This document shows, in pieces, positions 1,825 to 57,878 of a stretch of DNA of 64,000 nt (position 1 is the stretch's first letter; each line of letters starts with the position of its first letter). The notes under the pieces were generated by a model. The model was not told the origin of the DNA. It was given only the letters and a program-made list of their open reading frames with translations, and searched no databases. The position numbers were made by a program, and so were the translations under genes. Where the stretch lies: NCBI GenBank assembly GCA_041674105.1, contig JBAYWK010000001.1, positions 82,190 through 146,189 of the forward strand, given 5' to 3'. This stretch comes from Minisyncoccota bacterium. GTDB taxonomy: Bacteria > Patescibacteriota > Minisyncoccia > Phycocordibacterales > DATDWN01.

Positions 1825-2325
1825 TTACAATCCCCTTTCTTTTCTCCTAGCCCTTAAAGTTCTGTGATCTTCTTCTATTTGATCTCGTATTTCCTCCCAA
1901 GAATCAACTTCATATTTTATTGTATTTTCTTGAGATACTTTCAAATCTTCATTTGTTAAATCATACTGTTCCCATTCATTAGTTTCAGGGTTTAAAGCTT
2001 TTATCCAAGCATGATCAACAGAGTCCAGAGTCTCACCATGTATAAGTTTAACTTTAAAACCCAAAAGACGAAGTGCTTCTGCTGAGATATTTACAATCGC
2101 ACCACAACTTTTCATTCCTTTCTTATATACTTCTTCTGCCGAAGTAAATCTTGATTCTATTATACTTTTTGGCTGGTAAGTAGATGAAAGTGATTTCATG
2201 CGACTGTTTACGCCTTCTTGTATAGCCAACATAATATCCGGCAAGCTTTTATACTTTTCACTTATTTCAGTAGCTAATTCACTTACTGATTCCGGAATAT
2301 ATTTCTCTTCTTTAAACTTTTCCAT
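1825..2325 (-). CDS. Transglutaminase-like (papain-fold) cysteine peptidase domain protein.
   Basis: Cys-His-Asp elements are present: GMKSCGAIVNISAEALRLLGFKV ... DHAWIKA ... QYD. This is typical of the transglutaminase-like superfamily. Confidence 0.5.
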   Translation of the reverse strand: MEKFKEEKYIPESVSELATEISEKYKSLPDIMLAIQEGVNSRMKSLSSTYQPKSIIESRFTSAEEVYKKGMKSCGAIVNISAEALRLLGFKVKLIHGETLDSVDHAWIKALNPETNEWEQYDLTNEDLKVSQENTIKYEVDSWEEIRDQIEEDHRTLRARRKERGL

Positions 2326-2329
2326 ATTT

Positions 2330-2737
2330 TTATCCTTGTTTTATTAATTCAACCAATTTCTCTCTTGCTTCTTCAACAGTTTTCACTACATTTCCAGCTT
2401 TTTTAATAAACTCAATAGACCACTTTGGATTTCTTTCCTCTTTCCAAATTATTATAAGTTTATTACAAGTATCACCTGGATTATTGGTGTTATTTGCCAA
2501 AAAATACCCAATTTCTACCCATGTGGCTTCTGAAGGTGCAACACCAGGATTTGCCACCAAATACTCGCAATCTTTAACAGCTTTCAAATCATCAGGGAAA
2601 AAAGTATCCGGTGAGGCCTGATCAGAATCAAATTCCCAATCATAAATATCACATCCTGGAATATTTTTAAAATTTTCTTTCCAGTTATTTTCATATTCAT
2701 TAGGCTGACCAGCTAGATAAATTTTTATTTTTTCCAT
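2330..2737 (-). CDS. Nucleoside 2-deoxyribosyltransferase-like protein, probably nucleoside salvage.
   Basis: N-terminal KIYLAG and the motif SEATWVEIGYFLA match the IYLAGP / DsGTafELGyA signatures of the NDT family. Confidence 0.55.
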   Translation of the reverse strand: MEKIKIYLAGQPNEYENNWKENFKNIPGCDIYDWEFDSDQASPDTFFPDDLKAVKDCEYLVANPGVAPSEATWVEIGYFLANNTNNPGDTCNKLIIIWKEERNPKWSIEFIKKAGNVVKTVEEAREKLVELIKQG

Positions 2738-2748
2738 ATTATTCTAAT

Positions 2749-3345
2749 TTATTCCTTAGATTTAAGATATACAGTTAAATATTTTTCTTCTAAATTATTT
2801 TTTAATCTTGTTCCTAATGTATCTTTACCTGTTCTAAAGTGTTTACCGTCCTCAACATGAGCTCCACCAACAATAACAAAATATTTGCCCGGATTTTCCT
2901 GATAGTAATTATTAATATTATCAGACATATCCTCGTCCCGTGACTCACCTCTTAAAAAATAATAGCCGTGTTCAGATTTGGTTTTATACTCATCTATAGC
3001 AACCTTAGAAGAATCGATGCAAATAACCGGTTTGCCCAATTCTTTTAGCTTATCTAACATTTTCAAAATACCCCTTATATCTTTACTTTCTTTCTGTGCT
3101 CCCAAAAAATACCTTTCTAGACTTTGATCAATCTCTCCTTTTTCCATATACAAATCTACAGAAGATTGATAGCTTACAGACAATTCTAAAAATAAACCTC
3201 TTATTTGATCTGAATGTTTATCTAAAACACAAATGATTTCTTCATCATGAGTGCCGTGAAAGTTTTCAGCCAAAACAACAATATCTGCTTTTTCAAAATA
3301 ATTTTCTAAAACCTGCTCTTGTTCTATTTTTGGAATTTGTTCCAT
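2749..3345 (-). CDS. EreA/ChaN/Tiki-superfamily-like protein.
   Basis: Two GxxH-type motifs (VVLAENFHGTHDEE and VIVGGAHVEDG) are spaced as in the Tiki/TraB/ChaN fold. The assignment is tentative. Confidence 0.4.
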   Translation of the reverse strand: MEQIPKIEQEQVLENYFEKADIVVLAENFHGTHDEEIICVLDKHSDQIRGLFLELSVSYQSSVDLYMEKGEIDQSLERYFLGAQKESKDIRGILKMLDKLKELGKPVICIDSSKVAIDEYKTKSEHGYYFLRGESRDEDMSDNINNYYQENPGKYFVIVGGAHVEDGKHFRTGKDTLGTRLKNNLEEKYLTVYLKSKE

Positions 3346-3348
3346 AAA

Positions 3349-4014
3349 TTACGGTTTAGATATTTCTATAATAATTTTATTAATATCTGGGAAATACTTT
3401 TCAAATATCTCTGATACTTTTTCTGAATTTTCCGGATCTCTCTGAATCCTCTTACTTTCAGGGAAAAATTTATCGATAATTAAATCCACCAACCTTTCCT
3501 TTACCCAATGTGTTATTTTATACTCTTTTATTAGAGGCTCAATGGTTAAATGTACAATCTCATGGGCTAGAGTAATAGTAAGTACTCTTTTTTGTTCAAT
3601 ATTAAGTTGAACATTATTTGGTAACCCATAACTACCCCCTGTTCCATATTTTGTAACACATACAAAATATTTATCTTGTAGTGGAAGATTTAGTGTTTTT
3701 AAACTTTCAAAAAATTTATCTTTTATTTCATCCCACTCTTTTATTATCAAATCCACTTCTTCTCTATATTTTTCTTGATCAAATTCAGCAGAAACTGCTT
3801 CTAAAATATCTTCCTTTTTTACCTTCTCATCTTTTTCTAATCTTTCTTGTATCAATTTAGGATACTTGGGCTTATAACCATTTTCCTTATACCAATGGTA
3901 TTTTTTAAGTGTACTAAAAACCCTTTCTTTTTCATCTTCTACAGAATAATCAAAAACAACCTCTATTTTTGGTTCAGCTTCTTTGTTATCTTGATTTTCT
4001 ATTAGCTTTTCCAT
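3349..4014 (-). CDS. Hypothetical protein with an HExxH zinc-metallopeptidase-like motif.
   Basis: The ORF is 221 aa and contains TITLAHEIVHLT. No wider family was recognised. Confidence 0.35.
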   Translation of the reverse strand: MEKLIENQDNKEAEPKIEVVFDYSVEDEKERVFSTLKKYHWYKENGYKPKYPKLIQERLEKDEKVKKEDILEAVSAEFDQEKYREEVDLIIKEWDEIKDKFFESLKTLNLPLQDKYFVCVTKYGTGGSYGLPNNVQLNIEQKRVLTITLAHEIVHLTIEPLIKEYKITHWVKERLVDLIIDKFFPESKRIQRDPENSEKVSEIFEKYFPDINKIIIEISKP

Positions 4015-7264: not shown

Positions 7265-7304
7265 TACAAATACAAAAACCACCCGAAGGTGGTTTTTGTA
7301 TTTG
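7265..7304 (-). terminator. Intrinsic terminator downstream of rpsJ and repeat A1.
   Basis: acaaatacaaaaaccacccgaaggtggtttttgtatttgt has a GC stem ccacc/ggtgg followed by a T-run on the minus strand. Confidence 0.65.
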
Positions 7305-7305
7305 T

Positions 7306-7380
7306 AAGGATTTTTGTTTGAGTTCAAGGCGCCAAGTTTTGTTTTTGACCAAGGTGTATAAAAATACTCCGCGGGAGAAA
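7306..7380. repeat. Repeat family A, copy 1, lying 3' of rpsJ.
   Basis: It shares ttcaaggcNcNaagttttgttt and a 30-nt identical core gaccaaggtgtataaaaatactccgcggga with copy 2 at 15774..15868. Confidence 0.7.
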
Positions 7381-7425
7381 ACAAAACAAGCAACGCAGAA
7401 ATCGAACAAAAAGACTACAAATAAA

Positions 7426-9551: not shown

Positions 9552-12500
9552 TTAGTTTTTTAATAAATGACTTATATTTTCAAAAATATTAGTTTTTGAT
9601 GCTTTAAGTGCTCTCTCGTAAACATTATCAGAAGACCACCAAGAGCCTTCCACTCCTTCATCCAATAAAACCTGCGATCCTTTTTCTGTAATTATTCCAC
9701 TAGCAAAATGTTTGCCATTTAAATATAAATCTGTTTTACCAATTTCATTTGAGACATCTGTTACTGTTTGTATAACCCCTCCTTCAAAAGGAAGTTTGGC
9801 CGGTAAATAGCCTACATTTTTATACCCTTCTACCATCTTATCCATTGCTATATTGAATGCTTTTCTAACTTCTGTGTATACTTTACCCTCTTGGAGTTTA
9901 TCAGCTAAAGCCATAGGATATGCTCCTGGTTTAGGGTCTGAGATCTCTTCCGCTATAGCTTGATTATCATAAACTAGAACTTTTTTACCTTCTAAATCAG
10001 CCAAGCCCACAGTGTGGTTGTCTACGACAAGATTATCTAAAGAAGAAAAAGGTTTACCTCCTATTTCTATAATTTTTGTTTTAGTTTCTATATTTTCTGG
10101 AATATTTGAAATATTTTCCTGTGGAACATCTGGTATTTTGACTTTGCCAGAATCCATATCCACATCCATTGGAGCGGTCTTGCCAATGTATTCCCTTGGC
10201 ACAACTTCTCCTTCAGAATTTATTATCTTACCTTCAAATGAAGATACTTGACCTTTTTGTGAATCAAACAAAACATCTTTATTTCCGTTTAGATGCTCGT
10301 AACTTAAATTACCTTTACTATCTAAAGCCAAAGACTCCCCTTTTAGACCCGCCCCACTTAATTTGTGTTCTGGGTCATACATTCCAAACTCCTCAGCAAG
10401 TTTAGTTGATGGAGTTTCTACGAAGTGTTTTAGATTTTCTGGAACTTTGGCTACATTTCCATATTTTTCCAAAATCTTACCCTTCATTTCATCAAAAGTT
10501 TTTATAAAACCTTTTGATGAAAGCTCTACTTCAACAGTTTCTGGCTTTGCCACTTCAGAAATATTTACTTTTGGAGGTACACTCTCGGCTTGAATAGAAG
10601 GTTTTGAAGTTGGCACATTTTCTGCAGAAACTTTGGCTCCTCCCGCACTAATACTTTCAATAGAATGAAGTAAGGCTCCTGAAGCGACACTTGTTCCTAT
10701 ACCTGCACCCACCATAGCACCCGCTTTCCACAATAATTGTCTTTTCTTTTTGTCTTTTTCACTCTCATAAAAATCTCTGGCTTGTTTTTCTTTTTCAGCA
10801 AAATTATCTTCTGATATATCAGTACCATACTTATTTAAAAATCCTTCTTTTAATTTAGTATTATTTTTATCAAATTTATTTTGCAAAGCCCTACCTGCAA
10901 ATTGAGAAGTTGCTGCTCCCGCTGCTGCCCTCGCAACCCTATATCCTCCATAAGCAGCTACCCCAGCTAAAGGAAGTGCACCAAAAGCAAATGCTCCTGC
11001 TGTAACCAAAGTTGAGGATAGAGCTATTCTTGTAGCTGGATGTAATTTTTGCCATTTTTCCAGAGTTTTAGATAAAATTCCCTTCTCCAAAGGAGGCCTG
11101 CCAGATTCCATTACTTTATTGAATTTATCCATCTCTTGCTCTAAGGCTTTAACCAAATCTTCATTAAAAGAATATTCTCTTGTTTCAGCCGTAATAGCGC
11201 CAGTTAAAATAACTTCTTCTTTTTTTAAACCCTTAGCAAACAAATATCTAGATTTCTCTTTTTTTGCTTCTATATATACTCTCTCTAAACCTTTTAGTTC
11301 TTCTGGAATCTCATCTGATTTTGGCATTTGTTTTTCTACACCCAAATCAAACATTGCTTTAGCAAAAACATTTTTCTTCTGCCTGTGTTTATTCAAGAAT
11401 TCTTTCTTAGCAGAAGCATAATCCTCACGAGCTTTATCCAAGTTTATATCTATTTGTTCAGCTTTTTTAAAAAGTTCTTCAAAGTCATCTACTTCTGTTT
11501 TTTTAGAATTTTCCGGAATAAAAGGAGGAGCTATAATAGTTTCAGCTTTTATATCCAAAATTTGAGGTTCTTTTTGTGCAGGTTTTTCCTGCGGAGGTTT
11601 GGGAGATATAACCTCAGTTGGATTAACAGCCGGTATTTCATCTCTAGCACTTTTATCATTAATATCCTCTTTTGGTGTATAAAATTGGCCAACTTTATCT
11701 AAATCAATCTTTTCTTGCTCCTCCTTTGATATATCTACCACAGGGTATACTCCCCTATCATATAAAGGATCAAACTCTCTTGTACTCTCTTTTGTTTCTT
11801 CGTCTATAACAAAAGATCTTCTTGATTCTCTAGTTTCTTCATCGGGTAAGACTGGGATTTCAAATTGAGAAAGTTTGTTCAACTCTTCATTTTCTTTCAA
11901 GCCAGCAAGGTGATACATCAAATCTTTTTGATCGATATCTATTATTTTTAAATTAAAAGCATCATTTATTTCAGATCTAATCTCATTAAAAGATCTGGCA
12001 AAATCAATACCTTTATGTAGAGGAATAATACTCTCGGATTTTGGTAGACTTTTTTCAATATAATCGAAAAGATAGTTTTTTACTTCACCTAAACTCTTTT
12101 CTTTTGATTCTCTTTGATTGTTCAAAATATCAAAGGAAGGCTCTTTTTTTTCTTGCTCCTCCTTTGATATATCTACCACAGGGTATACTCCCCTATCATG
12201 TAAAGGATCAAACTCTCTTGTACTCTCTTTTGTTTCTTCGTCTATAACAAAAGATCTTCTTGATTCTCTAGTTTCTTCATCGGGTAAGACTGGGATTTCA
12301 AATTGTTGTAACTTTTCAGAATTAAACTCCTTTTTTTGTTCTGCGTATTTTTCATTAGACTCTTTTTCAATATCCTTAACTGTTTTTATAAAAGAATTAT
12401 CTAGCTCTGATTCTGACTCCACTTTTTTTACTGTGAATAAGGGTAAGGGGGAGCTCAATTCTTCAACTATTACATAATCACCTGCTATCTTTTTAACAGT

Positions 12501-13022
12501 GTAAACTTTATTGCTTACTGTCCAAACAACTTTGTCTCCTTTATTAAAATCTAATTTTTCTTCTTCAATTTTAGAAATAGGAATCTTCACCCCTTCTTCT
12601 AAAGGCAACCCCAGGATAGACATCATCTCTCTTTTTTGCTCCTTAGACACAAAGTCAGCCGAGAGGCTGTCTATAAACTTCTCTGCCCCTTCCCTATCTT
12701 TGATATACTGAGCATCAAAAACTAAATATTTTTTATAAGGATTTTCTGGCAGTTTTATTTGTAAATAATTTTTTAGTTCCTTTATAGAACCATCATTTAT
12801 CTCATTATTCTCCACTCTGGTATGCTCGGCAAGTGAGTTCATAGAAAGGTGATGAACATCTTCTTCTTCCACAACAAGTTCTATATCTGAAGGATTTTTA
12901 AATTTTGGGCCATCATACATAGTTTCTATTCTTTCAAGAGAATTCTTTTCAGAAGTTTCTTCTGGAGCGAGTTTAATATCTTCTGTTAGTTTATTATCAA
13001 ATTGTGACGAAAACCTAGGCAT
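9552..13022 (-). CDS. Giant 1156-aa hypothetical protein with charged low-complexity stretches, an internal duplicated 55-aa module and Gly/Ala-rich hydrophobic segments. It is inserted between fusA and tuf.
   Basis: A single intact ORF carries QFEIPVLPDEETRESRRSFVIDEETKESTREFDPL[H/Y]DRGVYPVVDISKEEQEK twice. Segments with GxxxG-like pattern (AGAFAFGALPLAGVAAYGG, AGAMVGAGIGTSVASGALL) may be membrane-embedded. Confidence 0.6.
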   Translation of the reverse strand: MPRFSSQFDNKLTEDIKLAPEETSEKNSLERIETMYDGPKFKNPSDIELVVEEEDVHHLSMNSLAEHTRVENNEINDGSIKELKNYLQIKLPENPYKKYLVFDAQYIKDREGAEKFIDSLSADFVSKEQKREMMSILGLPLEEGVKIPISKIEEEKLDFNKGDKVVWTVSNKVYTVKKIAGDYVIVEELSSPLPLFTVKKVESESELDNSFIKTVKDIEKESNEKYAEQKKEFNSEKLQQFEIPVLPDEETRESRRSFVIDEETKESTREFDPLHDRGVYPVVDISKEEQEKKEPSFDILNNQRESKEKSLGEVKNYLFDYIEKSLPKSESIIPLHKGIDFARSFNEIRSEINDAFNLKIIDIDQKDLMYHLAGLKENEELNKLSQFEIPVLPDEETRESRRSFVIDEETKESTREFDPLYDRGVYPVVDISKEEQEKIDLDKVGQFYTPKEDINDKSARDEIPAVNPTEVISPKPPQEKPAQKEPQILDIKAETIIAPPFIPENSKKTEVDDFEELFKKAEQIDINLDKAREDYASAKKEFLNKHRQKKNVFAKAMFDLGVEKQMPKSDEIPEELKGLERVYIEAKKEKSRYLFAKGLKKEEVILTGAITAETREYSFNEDLVKALEQEMDKFNKVMESGRPPLEKGILSKTLEKWQKLHPATRIALSSTLVTAGAFAFGALPLAGVAAYGGYRVARAAAGAATSQFAGRALQNKFDKNNTKLKEGFLNKYGTDISEDNFAEKEKQARDFYESEKDKKKRQLLWKAGAMVGAGIGTSVASGALLHSIESISAGGAKVSAENVPTSKPSIQAESVPPKVNISEVAKPETVEVELSSKGFIKTFDEMKGKILEKYGNVAKVPENLKHFVETPSTKLAEEFGMYDPEHKLSGAGLKGESLALDSKGNLSYEHLNGNKDVLFDSQKGQVSSFEGKIINSEGEVVPREYIGKTAPMDVDMDSGKVKIPDVPQENISNIPENIETKTKIIEIGGKPFSSLDNLVVDNHTVGLADLEGKKVLVYDNQAIAEEISDPKPGAYPMALADKLQEGKVYTEVRKAFNIAMDKMVEGYKNVGYLPAKLPFEGGVIQTVTDVSNEIGKTDLYLNGKHFASGIITEKGSQVLLDEGVEGSWWSSDNVYERALKASKTNIFENISHLLKN
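11712..11877. repeat. Intragenic direct repeat, copy a, about 165 bp.
   Basis: It is almost identical (1 mismatch seen) to 12150..12315 within the same ORF. Confidence 0.8.
12150..12315. repeat. Intragenic direct repeat, copy b, about 165 bp.
   Basis: See copy a at 11712..11877. Confidence 0.8.
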
Positions 13023-15721: not shown

Positions 15722-15754
15722 AAAAAGGACTGGTTTACCCAGTCCTTTTTTAAT
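15722..15754. terminator. Bidirectional intrinsic terminator.
   Basis: aaaaaggactggtttacccagtcctttttt. It ends the HhH gene on the plus strand and the rpsL-rpsG transcript on the minus strand. Confidence 0.65.
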
Positions 15755-15773: not shown

Positions 15774-15868
15774 ATTCAAGGCACGAAGTTTTGTTTATTA
15801 GGATTTTTGAAAAATTTCTAGGCTAATATGAGCATTGTGACCAAGGTGTATAAAAATACTCCGCGGGA
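15774..15868. repeat. Repeat family A, copy 2, lying 3' of rpsG.
   Basis: The core is the same as at 7306..7380, with a 40-nt insertion between the two conserved blocks. Confidence 0.7.
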
Positions 15869-15914
15869 ATAAGCGAAGTATTCAACAAAGAAATTTTTCA
15901 AAAAGACAATAGAC

Positions 15915-17771: not shown

Positions 17772-17814
17772 ATTTTTATTAAAACACCTCTTAAAATCTC
17801 TTTCTCAGCAACAT

Positions 17815-17890
17815 AATTTTAGGGCACACCATAAGTCTTGTTAGACTTTGGCTCAATCTCGCGCCGTCGCGCTCCGAAGTCCCTAAAATT
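17815..17890. repeat. Repeat family B, copy 1, a 76-nt element with a 10-bp terminal inverted repeat.
   Basis: aattttaggg…ccctaaaatt encloses an internal hairpin aagtcttgttagactt and a GC core ctcgcgccgtcgcgctccgaag. An inverted copy lies at 24393..24468. Confidence 0.75.
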
Positions 17891-17931
17891 ATAATGAGAG
17901 AGCGGAGTTTTTTAACAAAACCACATCGAGT

Positions 17932-18020
17932 GTATATGTTTTCTGAAACATTGCGAGCGCGACGGCACGAACACGAGGAATTTTTCAGTAGAAAAATATC
18001 CGTTTTCAGAAAACATATAC
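17932..18020. repeat. 17-bp perfect inverted repeat in the rpmB 5' region that encloses a B-like GC core.
   Basis: gtatatgttttctgaaa … tttcagaaaacatatac. The 55-nt loop contains gagcgcgacggcacga, related to the family-B core. Confidence 0.6.
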
Positions 18021-18121
18021 CGAGATGGGGATTTTGTTATATTAAAAAGCTAAGACGGTTTGAAAATATAAGTACAAAATTGTTTGCTTTTTATAACACT
18101 TATGGTAACATACTTATCACT

Positions 18122-24364: not shown

Positions 24365-24392
24365 TTATATAAAAACTTCATTGAGTCATTAC

Positions 24393-24468
24393 AATTTTGG
24401 AGACTTCGGAGCGCGACGGCGCGAGATTGAGCCAAAGTCTAGCAAGACTTATGGCGTGCTCCAAAATT
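24393..24468. repeat. Repeat family B, copy 2, inverted relative to copy 1 and lying between the convergent HIT and pgk genes.
   Basis: Its reverse complement aligns with 17815..17890 over about 76 nt. The TIR is aattttggag…ctccaaaatt, carrying compensatory substitutions relative to copy 1. Confidence 0.75.
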
Positions 24469-24495
24469 GTGATGAGGAGAAAGAAGTTTTTATGA

Positions 24496-26394: not shown

Positions 26395-26582
26395 TTATAC
26401 CAGACAATTGGCCAAATCAACTTACTCAACAAAACCTATATCTCGGTATATTTTAATAAAAACCTTCAGATTTGTATGAAATCCGACGTGAGAGTTTTAT
26501 AATTTGAAGAGCTTTATTTAAATAAAGTGATGAAAATTCTAAAACTTGGAGCGAGGAGTTCGCCAAATCTGAAGGTTTTTGC

Positions 26583-28043
26583 CTACCGAACCTCTTCCCA
26601 AGATATAATCTCATACTGATCCGAGGTTAAAGGAAAACTTGGAGGAGGACCGTACAAGAGGTTTGCGTCATATATAATCTCCCTTATGTCATAACCTGTA
26701 CCATCTGTATAAGAAAAACCATACCTTCCGTTACTTGCTATCATCCCATATAAAGTTATTGAATTTCTTGTATAACCAGTACCACAAGCTGAATTATAAT
26801 AATGCCTACCGACCCTGCCATTTTGAGCAACTAAAGCGGCGTCAATCCTTAAATCTGTATCGCTTTTTAATCCAACATTTATATTTCCTTGAGATATAAG
26901 AGATAGAACATCTCTGCCGTCATAATATGTATAAAGTAAATCATCATTTACAATAATAGCCGGTCTATTGTTTACATTATCTGGGAACCTTCCCGCTGCT
27001 ATTGTTAACCTCTTATTTTGTATTATACCATCTACCCATAAATCATCTTCAACAAAAACCACCCCATTTGCAGGCATAGAATAATTGGCTACAAAAGTCT
27101 GCCCATTGCTTCTTATACTCCAAATGCCCCAATCATCTTGACTATAACTACAGGATCCTGAAACATTTTCTAATCTTGTCACCTTATATACATCAAAAGT
27201 TCCATTTGTTTTTAAAACTATATGGTAACCAAGTGACCCTGAACTAGATATATACTTGCCATTCGACTGAGCTTTAGTTTTCATTTGAGAAATGTCCGTC
27301 GTAAGACCAACAAAATCTACAGCAGGTACAGGAAAAATCCTGCCGGCCACAAATATACCGGATCTACTTGGAACAGAATTTGGAGGAGCTTCAGCCGAGC
27401 GGAAATTATCATTTGTCCCTGTTTGAGGGGGAGGATTGATGTGGGTATGAACAGCAAACTCCTCTCCTCCAGTATGGTCAGGATCATCTGCAGTTGTCTT
27501 GCTACTAGATACAACATTGTAAGCTATCCCATCAAAACGAATACCTCCATTTGAGTGAATAGGTCCATAGACTTCGGTACCTTCTCCAAAACGCATGTAA
27601 TCATTAGCAACTACGGCATATTTTGCTAAAGATGGTATAGCCATCCTAACAACAATAGAGCGGTGTACAGAAGGATCCGAATCAACTTTACCCGTAGATT
27701 TTATAGTTACTATAGTAAAACCTTCTGGCGGAGGGGTTACTTCTAAAGTAAAAGTCCCTATCTTTGTACCATTTTTATCAAAAAAATCGTGAATATAAGG
27801 ACCAGGAAGTCCTGTTCCGTCTTTATAATCACTAGGAGAATGAGCCAAGTGCCATCTATAATAATCAATACCAGCTTCGGCTATTTGGAGAGCTTGCTCC
27901 CTTTTAGATGAAAGTCTGGAAGCTTTTATATTTACAGAAGCCCAACTTATGAGAGCTCCTATCATTATTATGGATATTGTTCCAAAAATAAGAGCTTGAA
28001 TTAAGAAACTTCCCTTATTTTTTTTAAAAGAATTGCTTTTCAT
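26583..28043 (-). CDS. PilX-like large minor or pseudopilin, type IV pilus.
   Basis: An N-terminal hydrophobic pilin-like helix QALIFGTISIIMIGALISW is followed by the AEAG motif of the PilX N-terminal family. Confidence 0.5.
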   Translation of the reverse strand: MKSNSFKKNKGSFLIQALIFGTISIIMIGALISWASVNIKASRLSSKREQALQIAEAGIDYYRWHLAHSPSDYKDGTGLPGPYIHDFFDKNGTKIGTFTLEVTPPPEGFTIVTIKSTGKVDSDPSVHRSIVVRMAIPSLAKYAVVANDYMRFGEGTEVYGPIHSNGGIRFDGIAYNVVSSSKTTADDPDHTGGEEFAVHTHINPPPQTGTNDNFRSAEAPPNSVPSRSGIFVAGRIFPVPAVDFVGLTTDISQMKTKAQSNGKYISSSGSLGYHIVLKTNGTFDVYKVTRLENVSGSCSYSQDDWGIWSIRSNGQTFVANYSMPANGVVFVEDDLWVDGIIQNKRLTIAAGRFPDNVNNRPAIIVNDDLLYTYYDGRDVLSLISQGNINVGLKSDTDLRIDAALVAQNGRVGRHYYNSACGTGYTRNSITLYGMIASNGRYGFSYTDGTGYDIREIIYDANLLYGPPPSFPLTSDQYEIISWEEVR

Positions 28044-41677: not shown

Positions 41678-41702
41678 ACCCCGATAGGGGTTTTTAAGTT
41701 GG
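41678..41702. terminator. Intrinsic terminator after hup.
   Basis: aaaaaccccgataggggttttt. Confidence 0.7.
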
Positions 41703-43596: not shown

Positions 43597-43637
43597 TATT
43601 AAATTATATCAAAAACAGATTCTAACTAGTACGTTTT

Positions 43638-43657
43638 TGTGCGGGTAGGGAGAATCG
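43638..43657. repeat. 20-bp direct duplicate of the 3' end of tRNA-Gly (att-like core).
   Basis: tgtgcgggtagggagaatcg is identical to the 3' terminus of the tRNA-Gly genes at 43826 and 48155. It lies 168 bp from the intact tRNA-Gly(UCC). Confidence 0.75.
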
Positions 43658-43825
43658 GTCAGGAATAATTTTGATTCCGTCGAATCAAAATTTTCACGAC
43701 CCTGACTCGCGACCCATCGTGCTCGATGGGTACCCCGCTCCGTCTTTCGATTCTCTACGCAAAGCCATACTATGGCTTTGCTCTAACCGCATAAGCGAAA
43801 AGCGCCCTAAGGTGCCTTTCGTCTG

Positions 43826-43896
43826 TGCGGGTAGGGAGAATCGAACTCCCGTATACTGCTTGGAAGGCAGTCATTCTACCACTAAACTATACCCGC
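43826..43896 (-). tRNA. tRNA-Gly (anticodon UCC).
   Basis: A 71-nt cloverleaf GCGGGUAUAGUUUAGUGGUAGAAUGACUGCCUUCCAAGCAGUAUACGGGAGUUCGAUUCUCCCUACCCGCA has a 7-bp acceptor and the T-loop GUUCGAUUC. Confidence 0.85.
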
Positions 43897-43945
43897 AAAT
43901 TTAAAACATAGTTAATATATCAAAAAAAACCGTCCTCTGCAATTT

Positions 43946-44130
43946 AGAGCCTATCTCCAATCTCGCATCAGAATAAAATGCCAAAATTTTCAGGCAAAAA
44001 TCAAACTGGAAGCCGAAGTGTATTGATATACAATAAGGATGAAGTGAAGGTTTTTGACGGAAATTTTGCTATTTTAACTAATGAGCTATATTCTTAGCTC
44101 TTTTTTGTGTCGAGATTGGAGATAGGCTCT
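43946..44130. repeat. 20-bp perfect inverted repeat pair enclosing about 145 bp that contain a 39-codon ORF and a hairpin terminator.
   Basis: agagcctatctccaatctcg (43946-43965) pairs with cgagattggagataggctct (44111-44130). The inner ORF at 43978..44097 encodes MPKFSGKNQTGSRSVLIYNKDEVKVFDGNFAILTNELYS. The hairpin gagctatattcttagctc is followed by a T-run. Confidence 0.6.
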
Positions 44131-44150
44131 ATGATGATATAATACTAAAT

Positions 44151-45302
44151 ATGTTAACTAATCTTATAAAAATTAGTTTATTTTTTTCTCTAGCTATACT
44201 TGTATGGTTTATATATCCTAGAGAAGTAAATAAAAACCTACCTGTAGTAGGAGAAGAATTGAAGATAGAATTCCCCGAAGAAACCTTTGATACAGACACA
44301 GTTTTAGAAGAAAAAGTTAAAACTGAAAACCAAACAAAAGAAGAAAATAAAGCTAAACCTACTGTAGAAAAAATTGAAGTAGTGTCGAAAAAAACTTCGT
44401 CAGATAACCAAAATCCAGTAAACTCAGAACAACCAAAAAATACCAACTCAACAAAAGAGTCGGGAGATTTTGTAGAATTGAATGAGAAATCCAGAAAATC
44501 AATCGTAAATATCTTGTGTAAAACAAATGGAAATGACCTTTCTACTATTACAGGCACAGGAGTTATCATAGATCCTCGTGGAATAATCCTTACAAATGCT
44601 CATATAGGACAATACTTCCTTTTGAAAGATTTTAAATTCAAAAACTTTGTAGAATGTACTATTCGCACAGGAGAACCTGCTTATCCAAAATACGAAGCTG
44701 AGCTAGTATATATTTCTCCAGAATGGGTAGAGGCAAACAAATCAATACTAACGGAAGAAAATCCTAAAGGCACAGGCGAATATGATTTTGCTTTTCTTAG
44801 AATAACCAAGGCTATAGATGGAACCGTACTACCTTCATTTGATTATATAAAACCTGACACAAGAGAAATAATAGATGAAGGAGAACCTGTCTTACTAGCC
44901 TCCTACCCTGCCGGATTCCTTGGAAGTATTTCTGTTATCCAAGGACTATACATAACCAGTGCAGTCACAACTGTTCAAAAAATATTTACATTTAAAGAGA
45001 CAACTATTGATTTACTTTCAGTTGGAGGAACTGTTTTGTCACAAAAAGGATCTTCAGGTGGAGCCGTAATAGACCGATACGGTAAACTTATTGGTCTAAT
45101 TTCTACAAGTTCAGATGGAGACACCACAAGTGAAAGAGACCTACGAGCTATCACAATGACTCATATAAACAGAAGTTTAAAAGAGTCTTTTGGTGGTTTA
45201 AACTCTTTCCTTGGTCTAAATATGGAAACTACAGCAGACATTTTCAAAAAAACACTCTTCCCTTCCCTTTCACAACTTATAATAAATGAATTGAAAAAAT
45301 AA
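44151..45302 (+). CDS. Trypsin-like (S1/HtrA-like) secreted serine protease without PDZ domains.
   Basis: A signal anchor is followed by His (ILTNAHI), Asp (DFAFLRI) and Ser (GSSGGAV) catalytic motifs. Confidence 0.75.
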   Translation: MLTNLIKISLFFSLAILVWFIYPREVNKNLPVVGEELKIEFPEETFDTDTVLEEKVKTENQTKEENKAKPTVEKIEVVSKKTSSDNQNPVNSEQPKNTNSTKESGDFVELNEKSRKSIVNILCKTNGNDLSTITGTGVIIDPRGIILTNAHIGQYFLLKDFKFKNFVECTIRTGEPAYPKYEAELVYISPEWVEANKSILTEENPKGTGEYDFAFLRITKAIDGTVLPSFDYIKPDTREIIDEGEPVLLASYPAGFLGSISVIQGLYITSAVTTVQKIFTFKETTIDLLSVGGTVLSQKGSSGGAVIDRYGKLIGLISTSSDGDTTSERDLRAITMTHINRSLKESFGGLNSFLGLNMETTADIFKKTLFPSLSQLIINELKK

Positions 45303-45377
45303 TTAGACTTCTTTAAAAAATAGATAAAATTGTGCTAGTTAGAGAAATTTTTAACGACAGAGATATATGGTAATTGT

Positions 45378-45505
45378 GAAAAACTTAACAGTTTGGATGA
45401 AGTCCTAGGCGGATAAGAAAAATAATTTGAGCCTGCCTTGGATGCGCAGGCTCAAATTATTTTTTGAAATCCAACAACGGAATTCGCCAAACTGTTAAGT
45501 TTTTA
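45378..45505. repeat. Repeat family C, copy 1, a 127-nt element with an 18-bp terminal inverted repeat and an inner 12-bp palindrome.
   Basis: gaaaaacttaacagtttgg…ccaaactgttaagttttt. The inner palindrome is atttgagcctgc-cttggat-gcaggctcaaat. The 3' edge overlaps the stop codon of the minus-strand RNHCP gene. Confidence 0.8.
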
Positions 45506-45811
45506 TTTAAAATTTTTACCATTCTCAGAACTTATCTGAACTATCATCTGAAAATTATCCTCTTTAACAGCCTTATTTGGCTTCTCTAGACCACATTTAG
45601 TGCATTTGTGTATGATTGTGTACTCTTTACCTTTTTTCTCAATTCTGATGGGTTCCATCATACCAAAACAAACAGACTCTCTGTCCCCTGGGTCAATGTC
45701 TACATGTTTAGACCAAAGACAATTTGGACAATGGTTTGTATAACCTGTACCTAAAACCTCGGTTCCGCACTTCTCGCAAACAAAATTTTCTTTTGTACGT
45801 TTGAAAGTCAT
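45503..45811 (-). CDS. RNHCP-domain zinc-ribbon protein.
   Basis: CEKCGTEV…TNHCPNCLWSKHVD…CTKCG. Confidence 0.6.
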   Translation of the reverse strand: MTFKRTKENFVCEKCGTEVLGTGYTNHCPNCLWSKHVDIDPGDRESVCFGMMEPIRIEKKGKEYTIIHKCTKCGLEKPNKAVKEDNFQMIVQISSENGKNFK

Positions 45812-46946: not shown

Positions 46947-47001
46947 GCTTATATTTTAGCAAATTCCTTCAATTGCGCATTATTTTCTTAATTTTCATCT
47001 T

Positions 47002-47050
47002 GTCGGGGCGCCGAGAATCGAACTCGGGCCACATCCCTTCGGGCCACAGA
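47002..47050 (-). repeat. Partial duplicate of the 3' half of tRNA-Pro (variable region, T-arm and acceptor 3' strand).
   Basis: On the minus strand the sequence is …GUGGCCCGAGUUCGAUUCUCGGCGCCCCGAC. It differs from the intact tRNA-Pro by 1-2 nt. Confidence 0.7.
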
Positions 47051-47084
47051 AACATAATATGTTTCTGGAATTATTTGAAACTAG

Positions 47085-47157
47085 GTCGGGGTGCCGAGAA
47101 TCGAACTCGGGCCGCATGTTCCCAAAACATGAATACTACCTCTATACTACACCCCGA
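47085..47157 (-). tRNA. tRNA-Pro (anticodon UGG).
   Basis: CGGGGUGUAGUAUAGAGGUAGUAUUCAUGUUUUGGGAACAUGCGGCCCGAGUUCGAUUCUCGGCACCCCGA. The anticodon loop is UUUGGGA. Confidence 0.85.
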
Positions 47158-47185
47158 CGCAATTTCAAATAATTCCCCAAAAATG

Positions 47186-47210
47186 CATACTACCTCTATA
47201 CTACACCCCG
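47186..47210 (-). repeat. Partial duplicate of the 5' half of tRNA-Pro (acceptor 5' strand, D-arm and anticodon 5' stem-loop).
   Basis: On the minus strand the sequence is CGGGGUGUAGUAUAGAGGUAGUAUGCAUUUUUGGGG…. Confidence 0.7.
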
Positions 47211-47253
47211 AATATAACAATTAGAAGTCTACCATAAATAATATAAATAACAA

Positions 47254-56183: not shown

Positions 56184-56678
56184 CTAAAAATCTTTTAGAG
56201 TTTTGATAATATTTTCAACCTCTTCATAACCAGGTAAAAAACTGTAGTTGTATCTAGGAGCAGTAGCAAAAACATAATTTTCATTTTCTCCTCTTTTCGT
56301 TGGGCCAATAGGCGCTGCTGTAGGATATGTTGCAAAATTATTTGACTCCCATTCGCTCCACCTCGCTTTAGTAAATATCTGAATTGGTATATCCATTGTG
56401 GGATTTTCTTCTGTCCAATTTGGATTACGCAACACAACCTCAAAACCTGTGCCTTTACCAGAGCCTTCTGTTATTGGGCCGGATGTAGCTGTGTAACCTT
56501 CCCATGATTTAGTAAGGTATAAAGTAAAACCAAACTCTTCATTTTTATAAATTAAATTATTATTTACTATTTCTTTTTGCCTGTTGTCTTTTGAATTATT
56601 TTTGTTTTGATATAAGCAAAAACCCAAAGAAAAAATGGTTGCAAGAATTAATATGACTAATAGTATTGTTTTTTTCAT
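56184..56678 (-). CDS. Putative secreted protein or lipoprotein, hypothetical.
   Basis: A signal peptide with the lipobox-like LGFC is present. Confidence 0.45.
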   Translation of the reverse strand: MKKTILLVILILATIFSLGFCLYQNKNNSKDNRQKEIVNNNLIYKNEEFGFTLYLTKSWEGYTATSGPITEGSGKGTGFEVVLRNPNWTEENPTMDIPIQIFTKARWSEWESNNFATYPTAAPIGPTKRGENENYVFATAPRYNYSFLPGYEEVENIIKTLKDF

Positions 56679-56735
56679 AATTTTTTGAATTATTAAATTT
56701 ATAATCTTTAGGATTTTTGTTTCAGTTCGAAGTAC

Positions 56736-56862
56736 GAAAAACTTAACAATTTGGATGAAGTCCTAGGCGGATAAGAAAAATGATTTGAGCCTGCCTTGGA
56801 TGCGCAGGTGAAAATTATTTTTTGAAATCCAACAACGGAATTCGCCAAACTGTTAAGTTTTT
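56736..56862. repeat. Repeat family C, copy 2.
   Basis: About 93% identical to 45378..45505. The 3' edge again overlaps the stop codon of a minus-strand gene, the M23 peptidase. Confidence 0.8.
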
Positions 56863-56864
56863 AT

Positions 56865-57878
56865 TTAGAAGGGGTTTTTTCCTCCTCTAACCTCAAAGTG
56901 CAAATGTATTCCAGTAGATTTTCCTGTACTACCCATATATCCAATAGTATCACCTTGGCTTACTTTTTGACCAACGCTTATTGCTGTATTATTTAAGTGG
57001 CCGTACAAAGTCTGAGTTCCATTTGAATGCTTAATAACGATATAAGAACCATAACCCCCATTCCATCCTGAGTTTTTTGAAATAATGACTTCTCCGTCTG
57101 CCGCGGCCATAATCTTGGCATTCAAATAAGAAGCTAGATCTACTCCATTATGACCATGTATTCCCTGAGTCCTTACTCCTCCAACTATAGGTCTTATAAA
57201 ATAACCTGATACAGAAACACTCCCAGATGAAGTTTTAGTATAAAAGCTTGAAGAAGATGTTGTGGTTTTAGTACTTACAGCCAATATTTCACCATCTGGT
57301 ATAAAAATCTTATCCCCAATAGCTATTTTTGAATCTTTTGCTAGATTATTATATTGAAGTATTTCTTCTAGATCACCACTATATTTTTTGGCAATACCTT
57401 GCAAAGTGTCTCCGGACTTAACGGTATGATTTATACCTGATATAGGTAGTATAACAAGCTCTTGTCCAGGGGATATTTGGGTTCCCTTAAGATCGTTTGC
57501 CCAAATAATTGTATTCGTATTTACATTAAAAATCTTAGCTATATCTGAAAGCTTATCTCCTTCACGAACAACATAAACACTAATCTGTCCGTTGTTATAA
57601 ACATATTCTTTACTATCGTAGGGTGTATGAGCTTCTAAAAAAAGAGATGACTCATCTATTATAGAAACGGTTTCTGAAGTAGAAGAAGCTAAAGGTGCTA
57701 CCGCTGCCTGCAAAAGAGCCATATTTTGAGAGTTTGGGTTATTTGTTTCCAAGGCAGAAACATTTGAAGAAAATAAATCTTTTACTACAGAAAAAAAACC
57801 CGCTTCCACAGAAAGAGGTACTATTGCGGATAAGGCAAATATAGAGAAAAACGCAAATCGTGCCTTTATGTTCACCAA
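56865..57878 (-). CDS. Peptidase M23 family protein with two LysM domains.
   Basis: The LysM domains are YVVREGDKLSDIAKIF and HTVKSGDTLQGIAKKY. The M23 motifs are HNGVDLA and GSTGKSTGIHLHFEV. It has a TTG or GTG start. Confidence 0.8.
   Translation of the reverse strand: MVNIKARFAFFSIFALSAIVPLSVEAGFFSVVKDLFSSNVSALETNNPNSQNMALLQAAVAPLASSTSETVSIIDESSLFLEAHTPYDSKEYVYNNGQISVYVVREGDKLSDIAKIFNVNTNTIIWANDLKGTQISPGQELVILPISGINHTVKSGDTLQGIAKKYSGDLEEILQYNNLAKDSKIAIGDKIFIPDGEILAVSTKTTTSSSSFYTKTSSGSVSVSGYFIRPIVGGVRTQGIHGHNGVDLASYLNAKIMAAADGEVIISKNSGWNGGYGSYIVIKHSNGTQTLYGHLNNTAISVGQKVSQGDTIGYMGSTGKSTGIHLHFEVRGGKNPF

Follow-up and report, generated by a model that had tools for sequence, protein, structure and literature searches.

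What is the palindromic sequence that stands at the 3' ends of two unrelated genes in this stretch of chromosome, and how did it come to be there? The earlier note drew attention to the two copies and raised two possible answers, a mobile repeat of the MITE or REP type and a large transcription terminator or mRNA stabiliser. The window, the 64-kb stretch of DNA analysed here, is bacterial chromosome with a GC content of 33–35%. It carries ribosomal protein operons, the genes for EF-Tu and EF-G, a type IV pilus-like operon, PGK/TIM and NusA, as well as genes for RNase Y, a XerC/D-like recombinase, PcrA/UvrD and ComM. The closest named proteins come from MAGs of Parcubacteria, Zambryskibacteria and Minisyncoccia, and the host belongs to a clade of Zambryskibacteria-like Parcubacteria (CPR).

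The first copy (copy A) lies between two convergent genes, which encode a trypsin-like peptidase on the plus strand and an RNHCP-domain protein on the minus strand. The second (copy B) is located between two minus-strand genes, encoding a LysM/M23 peptidase and a 164-aa protein. The coordinates of these features, and of a third, more diverged member of the family (C3), are collected in Table 1. The 75-nt spacer next to copy A shows no similarity to any other part of the window or to the DNA of relatives, and is absent from the related assembly L060. The 57-nt stretch beside copy B is also not part of the repeat and has no significant homologue except for a short AAAATCCTAAAG motif.

Table 1. 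Members of the palindromic family in the window, their parts and the neighbouring genes (positions are those of the window).
Feature	Position	Strand	Remarks
486-aa gene, end of type IV pilus/T2SS-like operon	26583..28043	-	Stop abuts C3
C3, third diverged member	26458..26580	-	2 nt after the TAG stop of the 486-aa gene, same orientation
Trypsin-like peptidase gene	44151..45302	+	Pfam PF13365; convergent with RNHCP
Unique 75-nt spacer, not repeat	45303..45377		Between copy A and the stop of the trypsin-like gene
Copy A, palindromic repeat (family C)	45378..45512	-	Block common to copy B; hairpin proper 45379-45504
Copy A outer arm AAAAACTTAACAGTTTGG	45379..45396		18 nt; perfect complement of 45487-45504; plus strand starts with an A5 tract
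Copy A inner terminator-like hairpin	45418..45464		19-bp stem AAAAATAATTTGAGCCTGC / GCAGGCTCAAATTATTTTT, 9-nt loop 45437-45445; from sequence, fold and perfect-stem scan
Copy A outer arm CCAAACTGTTAAGTTTTT	45487..45504		T5 at the end; final 2 nt within the RNHCP stop codon
RNHCP-domain gene	45503..45811	-	Pfam PF12647, E 3e-29; stop TAA at 45505-45503
164-aa gene downstream of copy B	56184..56678	-	In L057 starts 15 nt after the M23 stop
Copy B	56736..56870	-	Hairpin 56737-56862; outer arms 56737-56754 and 56845-56862
LysM/M23 peptidase gene	56865..57878	-	Probable start 57809; assigned by Pfam; stop TAA 56867-56865

Two repeats are present where the earlier note placed them, but their identity is 96% rather than about 93%, with 6 differences across 135 nt. 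In the window, the 22- and 24-nt pieces of the repeat occur only in copies A and B, where no match is expected by chance and none was found in 100 shuffled sequences. The 18-bp terminal inverted repeat AAAAACTTAACAGTTTGG described before is perfect in copy A and retained at 17/18 positions in copy B; with up to three mismatches allowed, it has four matches in the window, one per arm per copy, against 0.39 expected. Both HMM and CM scores place copy A on the minus strand (E 4e-30, versus 2e-6 for the plus strand).

Each copy folds end to end, in agreement with the earlier proposal, and does so far beyond chance, none of 200 shuffled sequences folding as well. The minimum free energy is -64 kcal/mol for copy A (z -12.5) and -50 kcal/mol for copy B (z -7.9), and the opposite strands of both copies fold almost equally. 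The architecture differs from the double hairpin previously described: each copy is one nested imperfect hairpin running from end to end, not two hairpins side by side, with an 18-bp outer stem followed by a middle part of short helices and internal loops. Likewise, the reported 12-bp inner palindrome is in copy A a 19-bp stem, formed by 45418-45436 with 45446-45464. This stem is perfect and has the GC core GAGCCTGC, and in copy B it is broken by a CTC>TGA change; two point changes further weaken the pairing of copy B. Since the differences that break pairing relative to a perfect hairpin are all in copy B, copy A looks like the unmutated state. The T-runs said to flank the element are found on both strands of both copies.

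An assembly artefact can be ruled out, because the same sequence is present in three independent assemblies, namely the window, the ENA assembly L054 and the Logan assembly of SRR6484325. L054 is 99.98% identical over 17.8 kb and its copy B is identical, and the ends of the element are found on three Logan contigs. These contigs break off after 44 or 33 nt of the element. We considered a high copy number as the cause of the breaks and rejected it, as k=31 and the two known copies explain them fully. Hairpins of this kind break short-read assemblies, as seen from the Logan contigs that end in them, and could be mis-annotated as gene ends or small ORFs.

The position of the copies relative to the stop codons had led to the proposal that the element itself supplies the TAA stops of the two genes. 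Orthologues that have no element contradict this, as they keep the same C-termini and stop positions (L060 and L057). The RNHCP orthologue P0121, 88% identical, has the same ...NGKNFK end without the element (...NGKNFK-TAA in L060), and in L060–L062 the stops of RNHCP and of the convergent peptidase gene are only 1 nt apart and the element is missing. The M23 orthologues of L057 (88% amino acid identity), L058 (78%) and L059 (77%) end in NPF-TAA as in the window, so that all four M23 proteins compared share this end, with or without the element; in L057 only 15 nt, and no element, separate the M23 stop from the next gene. The TAA stops of RNHCP and M23 are thus native. In addition, the position of the TAA in relation to the repeat differs between the two genes: the RNHCP stop (TTA, 45503-45505) shares 2 nt with the end of the outer arm, and the M23 stop (TTA, 56865-56867) is 2 nt outside the arm of copy B. 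The TTYTAAAT that adjoins the arm belongs to the native genes, as coding and stop sequence, and its similarity at sites A and B is fortuitous.

The two copies are not alone. A third member is found in the window, and related genomes contain further members with structural covariation. Members in relatives were located via the neighbouring proteins, and the third member by a long-hairpin scan that was agnostic of the family. C3 scores an nhmmer E of 1.4e-24 and 121 CM bits, folds with a z of -8.75 and is ~61-62% identical to copies A and B, with which it shares the arm motifs AAAAACCTTCAGATTTGGCGAACTCC ... GGATTTCATACAAATCTGAAGGTTTTT. The ends of the family follow the pattern AAAAACYYTC...AAATTTGG. 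In total, three members are found in the 64-kb window and at least five independent sites across six related assemblies, comprising the window and five relatives. Each unit forms one uninterrupted hairpin of ~125 nt, in which homology extends ~30 nt into the arms and the centre varies; the genes that it follows are unrelated to each other. All copies begin 0–3 nt after the upstream stop, though the intergenic regions measure 177–276 nt. The GGCGAAYTCC arm is nearest the stop in every copy, giving the same orientation at 5/5 sites; by chance, such a shared orientation is expected in 1 case in 16.

Comparison with relatives reveals filled, empty and truncated states of these sites. At the M23 site, L058 and L059 have diverged hairpins of the same architecture in the same place, and the flanking motif AAAATCCTAAAGATTA, common to the window and L059, argues for orthology. 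At the site of the 486-aa gene, a full copy and an isolated right arm are present in L065, a left arm that leads into another hairpin core in L064, and the left half only in L063, apparently because sequence between GTTTTAAAAT microrepeats was deleted. Here, the outgroup L066 (73% amino acid identity) has a plain 11-bp terminator, AAAAACCCTCA-GTTA-TGAGGGTTTTT, 2 nt after the stop, whose stem is identical to the outer stem of the L064 and L065 copies. In L070 (GCA_034680565.1), the RNHCP site contains a 73-nt unrelated spacer; one member follows directly after the rny stop (nhmmer E 6e-14, 104 CM bits) and another the stop of a 92-aa gene (54 CM bits). Among the closest relatives, an empty or truncated state is seen at three sites.

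This pattern of presence and absence agrees with the earlier suggestion of a MITE- or REP-like element, but no target-site duplication was found at the copies and no cognate transposase in the window, and a classical MITE is not supported. As a classical MITE, the family would move by non-autonomous cut-and-paste, its 18-bp terminal repeats being recognised by a transposase encoded elsewhere, with gene ends as tolerated insertion points. Such an origin, which we consider unlikely, would account for the perfect terminal inverted repeats, for two near-identical dispersed copies, for the empty sites in close relatives together with the occupation of other sites in other genomes, and for the occurrence of other hairpin families of this genome in a divergent promoter region (17791-18040). 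It is opposed by the lack of target-site duplications, which were found neither flanking A, B, C3 or the copies of L058, L059, L065 and L070, nor by comparison of the filled and empty states of site A. Furthermore, Pfam recognises no transposase among 56 window ORFs, which include every distinct window ORF of 120 aa or longer apart from four whose identity came from orthologous loci, and no RAYT (Y1 transposase) in the 64-kb window. The copies are palindromic over their whole length and not at the ends alone, and 5/5 sites abut a stop codon in one orientation.

Public sequence collections do not point to a wider distribution of the element. The terminal 18-mer gave 18 single matches in 185,579 genomes and 34 in JGI metagenomes, a chance level that also speaks against a MITE; the similarity is confined to 18–24 nt around the seed, so that the matches can be ascribed to chance and a near-identical form of the element is not in those collections. 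Exact scans with an interior 22-mer and 20-mer gave no match in viral contigs or JGI metagenomes, and BLAST found no match to the element in phage and plasmid collections. No Rfam family reached its gathering threshold, only tRNAs passing in the window; the best local hit, to miRNA-precursor-like hairpins, scored 25 bits against a cut-off of 249 bits, and permissive E-values were of no help.

The divergence of the copies tells more about their history. Copy B and its counterpart in L059 are 70% identical (73% for the DNA of the M23 gene), and C3 and its counterpart in L065 73% (79% for the DNA of the gene). The copies are vertically inherited, diverge about as fast as the neighbouring genes and are occasionally lost or truncated. 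Given that A and B are 96% identical and orthologous copies only ~70–73%, A and B are recent paralogues or recent copies of a third copy. Duplication involved the entire hairpin, together with the outer stem typical of the M23 site. Spread probably occurs via rare DNA-level copying of the whole hairpin, without target-site duplication. The similarity of ~10 nt of native sequence (TTYTAAATAA) at the left junctions of A and B leaves room for an origin by microhomology or template switching.

That same junction similarity, the terminator-like ends of the hairpins and the deletion between microrepeats in L063 would also be compatible with a family that is not mobile at all, in which ordinary terminators have lengthened in place into long palindromes and the identity of A and B results from ectopic gene conversion. 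We regard this as very improbable. Arm sequence deep inside the hairpin is common to five unrelated sites (nhmmer E 1e-14 to 1e-30), which argues for common descent and not for independent growth, and the relatives have nothing at site A that could be converted.

The location of the copies suggests a function. The copies start 0–3 nt past the stops, and what was seen as insertion exactly at stop codons is better described as occupation of the slot in which ordinary terminators abut stops in these compact genomes; in L066, ordinary terminators start 1–2 nt after the stops. Ordinary terminators visible in the window have a symmetric A5-stem-T5 hairpin form, for example AAAAACCACCC-GAAG-GGTGGTTTTT near 7270-7300, AAAAAGGACTGG...CCAGTCCTTTTT at 15722-15750 and AAAAACCCC-GATA-GGGGTTTTT near 41680. 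Comparable AAAAAY...RTTTTT ends are present in 6/7 aligned members of the family, the exception being the copy after rny in L070. Copies A, B and C3 and those of L058, L059 and L065 have a T5 run behind the hairpin on either strand, and the rny copy of L070 has no T-run. These ends, the plain terminator in L066 and the inner hairpin of copy A together indicate that the elements occupy the terminator slot.

Based on these sequence features, a role as terminator or 3' hairpin is most likely. The elements would terminate transcription in both directions in a Rho-independent manner, or protect the 3' end of the upstream gene as hairpins. Both convergent genes would be served by the element at site A, and the element at site B would separate the M23 gene from the 164-aa gene, which abuts M23 in L057. 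Several observations speak against such a role, or at least against a simple form of it. AT-rich sequence makes up the outer stem, and the hairpin as a whole, at ~55 bp, is far longer than a typical intrinsic terminator. A short GC-rich stem (~5–14 bp) with a small loop is found only in the inner hairpin of copy A (45418-45464), and a terminator consensus scan did not flag the family-C hairpin. The missing T-run of the L070 rny copy, the damaged inner stem of copy B and the unconserved centre across members point the same way.

The outer stems raise the possibility of a different mode of spread, in which a mobile core, AAATTTGGCGAAYTCC ... GGAYTTCATCCAAATT, inserts into or converts the loop of A5-stem-T5 terminators, so that the former terminator persists as the outer stem and termination is retained. 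In L066 the 11-bp stem AAAAACCCTCA/TGAGGGTTTTT stands alone, and in L064 and L065 an identical stem encloses the core. A core of a second hairpin family, D, is found inside a similar stem, AAAAACTTC/GAAGTTTTT, at 24369-24493 and also inside the left arm of family C in L064, and orthologues share site-specific signatures of the outer stem. Nevertheless, copy A has the outer stem of copy B, so the one recent event that is visible moved the whole hairpin; the empty site A of L060 has no terminator to nest in; and the state of L066 could equally result from a central deletion of a long palindrome. Nesting of a mobile core is improbable in our assessment. A broader proposal, which we put forward only as doubtful, builds on family C, on the nesting of the D core within a C arm in L064 and on the L066 terminator: in this CPR clade several hairpin families without transposase would home to and nest in terminators after stop codons, enlarging the hairpin but preserving termination, and a templated process at the DNA level, not selection on RNA, would keep their arms complementary. 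If true, such nesting families would spread by parasitising terminators, in bacteria whose genomes are among the smallest.

Family D comprises hairpins at 24369-24493 and 17791-17920 of the window, at 8340-8395 in L064 and at 10362-10545 in L070. Its core is asymmetric, with two small hairpins (CGCGCCGTCGCGC and AAGTCT..AGACTT), and its outer stems differ by compensatory changes. One D copy is located 2 nt after the PGK stop, inside the AAAAACTTC/GAAGTTTTT stem, and another in the divergent promoter region of the M50-peptidase and L28 genes, which are only 31 nt apart in L066. A third long hairpin, E (TATATGTTTTCTGAAA...TTTCAGAAAACATATA, 17911-18040, -45 kcal/mol), adjoins the latter D copy upstream of L28, and an E-like arm is observed after the PGK stop in L063 (11540-11572), at the end of the contig.

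To characterise the structural conservation of family C, we used a plain MAFFT alignment of seven members, for which RNAalifold predicts 40 pairs. The paired cells amount to 88.6%, compared with 71.3% after shuffling of the 3' partners, and to at most 55% when the partners are slid by 1–3 columns. Changes on both sides are seen in 24/40 pairs, against 12.1 in shuffled alignments, and 0/500 shuffles reach 24. The pairs are almost all Watson–Crick, and the mismatches comprise 6 G-U and 7 A-C, the latter being G-U on the other strand. As there is no excess of G-U over A-C, the complementarity is kept symmetrically, and these counts do not point to a constraint at the RNA level. The symmetric pairing fits a constraint on both strands, be it as bidirectional terminator or as DNA hairpin, and fits a family that need not be read as RNA from one particular strand. 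It could also reflect templated quasipalindrome correction, in which compensatory changes arise without selection.

These data bear on a further reading, that the hairpins are selected RNA structures of 3' UTRs, such as RNase III processing or stability elements or sRNA precursors, and not a DNA repeat with a terminator role. The perfect 18–19-bp duplexes of the family come close to the length required of RNase III substrates, and the strong covariation and the single orientation relative to the upstream gene at 5/5 sites also favour this reading. The lack of a G-U bias on either strand (6 versus 7), the unconserved centre of the hairpin, the unrelated host genes and the absence of an Rfam match make such a structure distinctly unlikely. 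Overall, we favour, with roughly even confidence, a lineage-specific and occasionally duplicating family of ~125-nt palindromes in the terminator slot, with a putative function as terminator or 3' hairpin and spread by rare DNA-level copying of whole hairpins.

Several other structured sequences are found in the window. A 187-nt element at 43945-44131, with perfect 21-bp terminal inverted repeats (TAGAGCCTATCTCCAATCTCG) and an MFE of -76 kcal/mol, lies between tRNA-Gly(TCC) and the trypsin-like gene; its sequence is unrelated to family C. Nearby, at 43616-43850, the end of tRNA-Gly is partially duplicated (TGTGCGGGTAGGGAGAATCG at ~43637 and again at 43824). The stretch enclosed by these duplicates folds with -49 to -64 kcal/mol per 130 nt and has no Rfam match, and L070 has a comparable structured region beside tRNA-Gly (2650-3466). 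tRNA-Pro (47084-47156; region 46988-47211) has inverted repeats of up to 35 nt at its two ends (47059-47093 with 47150-47184), and partial copies of the tRNA end are located at 46988-47036 and 47173-47211. This arrangement looks like the scar of an integration or duplication, and L060 has similar inverted repeats at the same tRNA-Pro place.

A 73-nt repeat (GACCAAGGTGTATAAAAATACTCCGCGGGA..., 79% identical) is present at 7343-7415, after the S10 stop, and at 15835-15907, after the S7 stop, where it forms part of a ~100-nt hairpin (15804-15904) with a weak family-C CM hit of 46 bits. The motif GAACTSAAACAAAAATCCTWA / AAAATCCTAAAG is observed beside hairpins or terminators and upstream of the next gene at 56698-56728, at 7295-7325 and at 4172-4187 in L059, as well as after the hairpin in L063 and L065, and may be a promoter or other signal. 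The window also contains unusual reading frames. Four ORFs (166, 135, 198 and 221 aa; 1825-4014) without a Pfam match separate the genes for L2 and S19, which are normally adjacent in the S10 operon, and a 1156-aa ORF without a Pfam domain (9552-13022) is situated between the EF-G and EF-Tu genes. The latter contains two 158-nt segments, 11710-11867 and 12148-12305, that are 99% identical and 438 nt apart.

The genomes of Parcubacteria and other CPR bacteria are very small, and repeats and mobile DNA are generally held to be scarce in them. Our literature search yielded no account of palindromic repeat families in these bacteria, nor of how their terminators are built. The present family indicates that these compact genomes, too, keep and occasionally copy 125-nt hairpins at gene ends, and its natural filled, empty and half sites, together with the covariation, can be used to study the evolution of terminators and palindromic repeats. 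The principle is not new, as REP, ERIC, Correia and RUP sequences are already gene-end palindromes that affect termination or mRNA stability. The interest of the family is therefore moderate and chiefly concerns CPR genome biology and terminator evolution.

Among known systems, ERIC (IRU) sequences are imperfect palindromes of ~127 bp in transcribed intergenic regions of Enterobacteria. Family C resembles them in its near-equal size, in being an imperfect palindrome over its whole length and in its 3' untranslated or intergenic location by stop codons; its 126-nt hairpin follows the stops in regions that are predicted to be transcribed. Low to moderate copy number, presence or absence between related genomes and the lack of an own transposase are further points in common. 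In contrast to ERIC, family C is found in Parcubacteria, has A5/T5 terminator-like ends and takes one direction relative to the upstream gene, and blastn gave no match in 5,426 complete E. coli genomes.

With the REP/REPIN sequences associated with RAYT (IS200/IS605-like Y1) transposases, family C shares intergenic hairpins at the 3' ends of genes and the lack of target-site duplication. REP sequences can serve in termination or stabilisation, and their REPIN doublets fold into long hairpins. REP units, however, measure 20–40 nt, whereas those of family C are ~125 nt long, have no GTAG-type head motif and appear to be low in copy number. PATE elements derived from IS200/IS605 insert 3' of a fixed tetra- or pentanucleotide and have subterminal hairpins at each end. 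We rejected this class for family C, in which the 5' flanks differ (TAAAT, TAGGC, TAGTAG and TAA) and one hairpin runs from end to end.

The Correia elements of Neisseria, the pneumococcal RUP and other MITEs are similar to family C in their length of 100–160 bp, their terminal inverted repeats and the existence of filled and empty sites; as hairpins in mRNA, they can terminate transcription or be cut by RNase III. Unlike family C, for which neither was found in the sequences searched, they make target-site duplications (e.g., TA) and have an identifiable parent IS. Bidirectional Rho-independent terminators share with family C the succession of A-tract, hairpin and T-tract right after the stop codon, but their GC-rich stem is usually 5–14 bp long, compared with ~55 bp, internal loops and homologous arms at several loci in family C. 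Family C has no sequence in common with ERIC/IRU, REP/REPIN, Correia or RUP; judged by analogy in size, shape, position and non-coding nature, its closest counterparts are ERIC/IRU, REP/REPIN and small MITEs.
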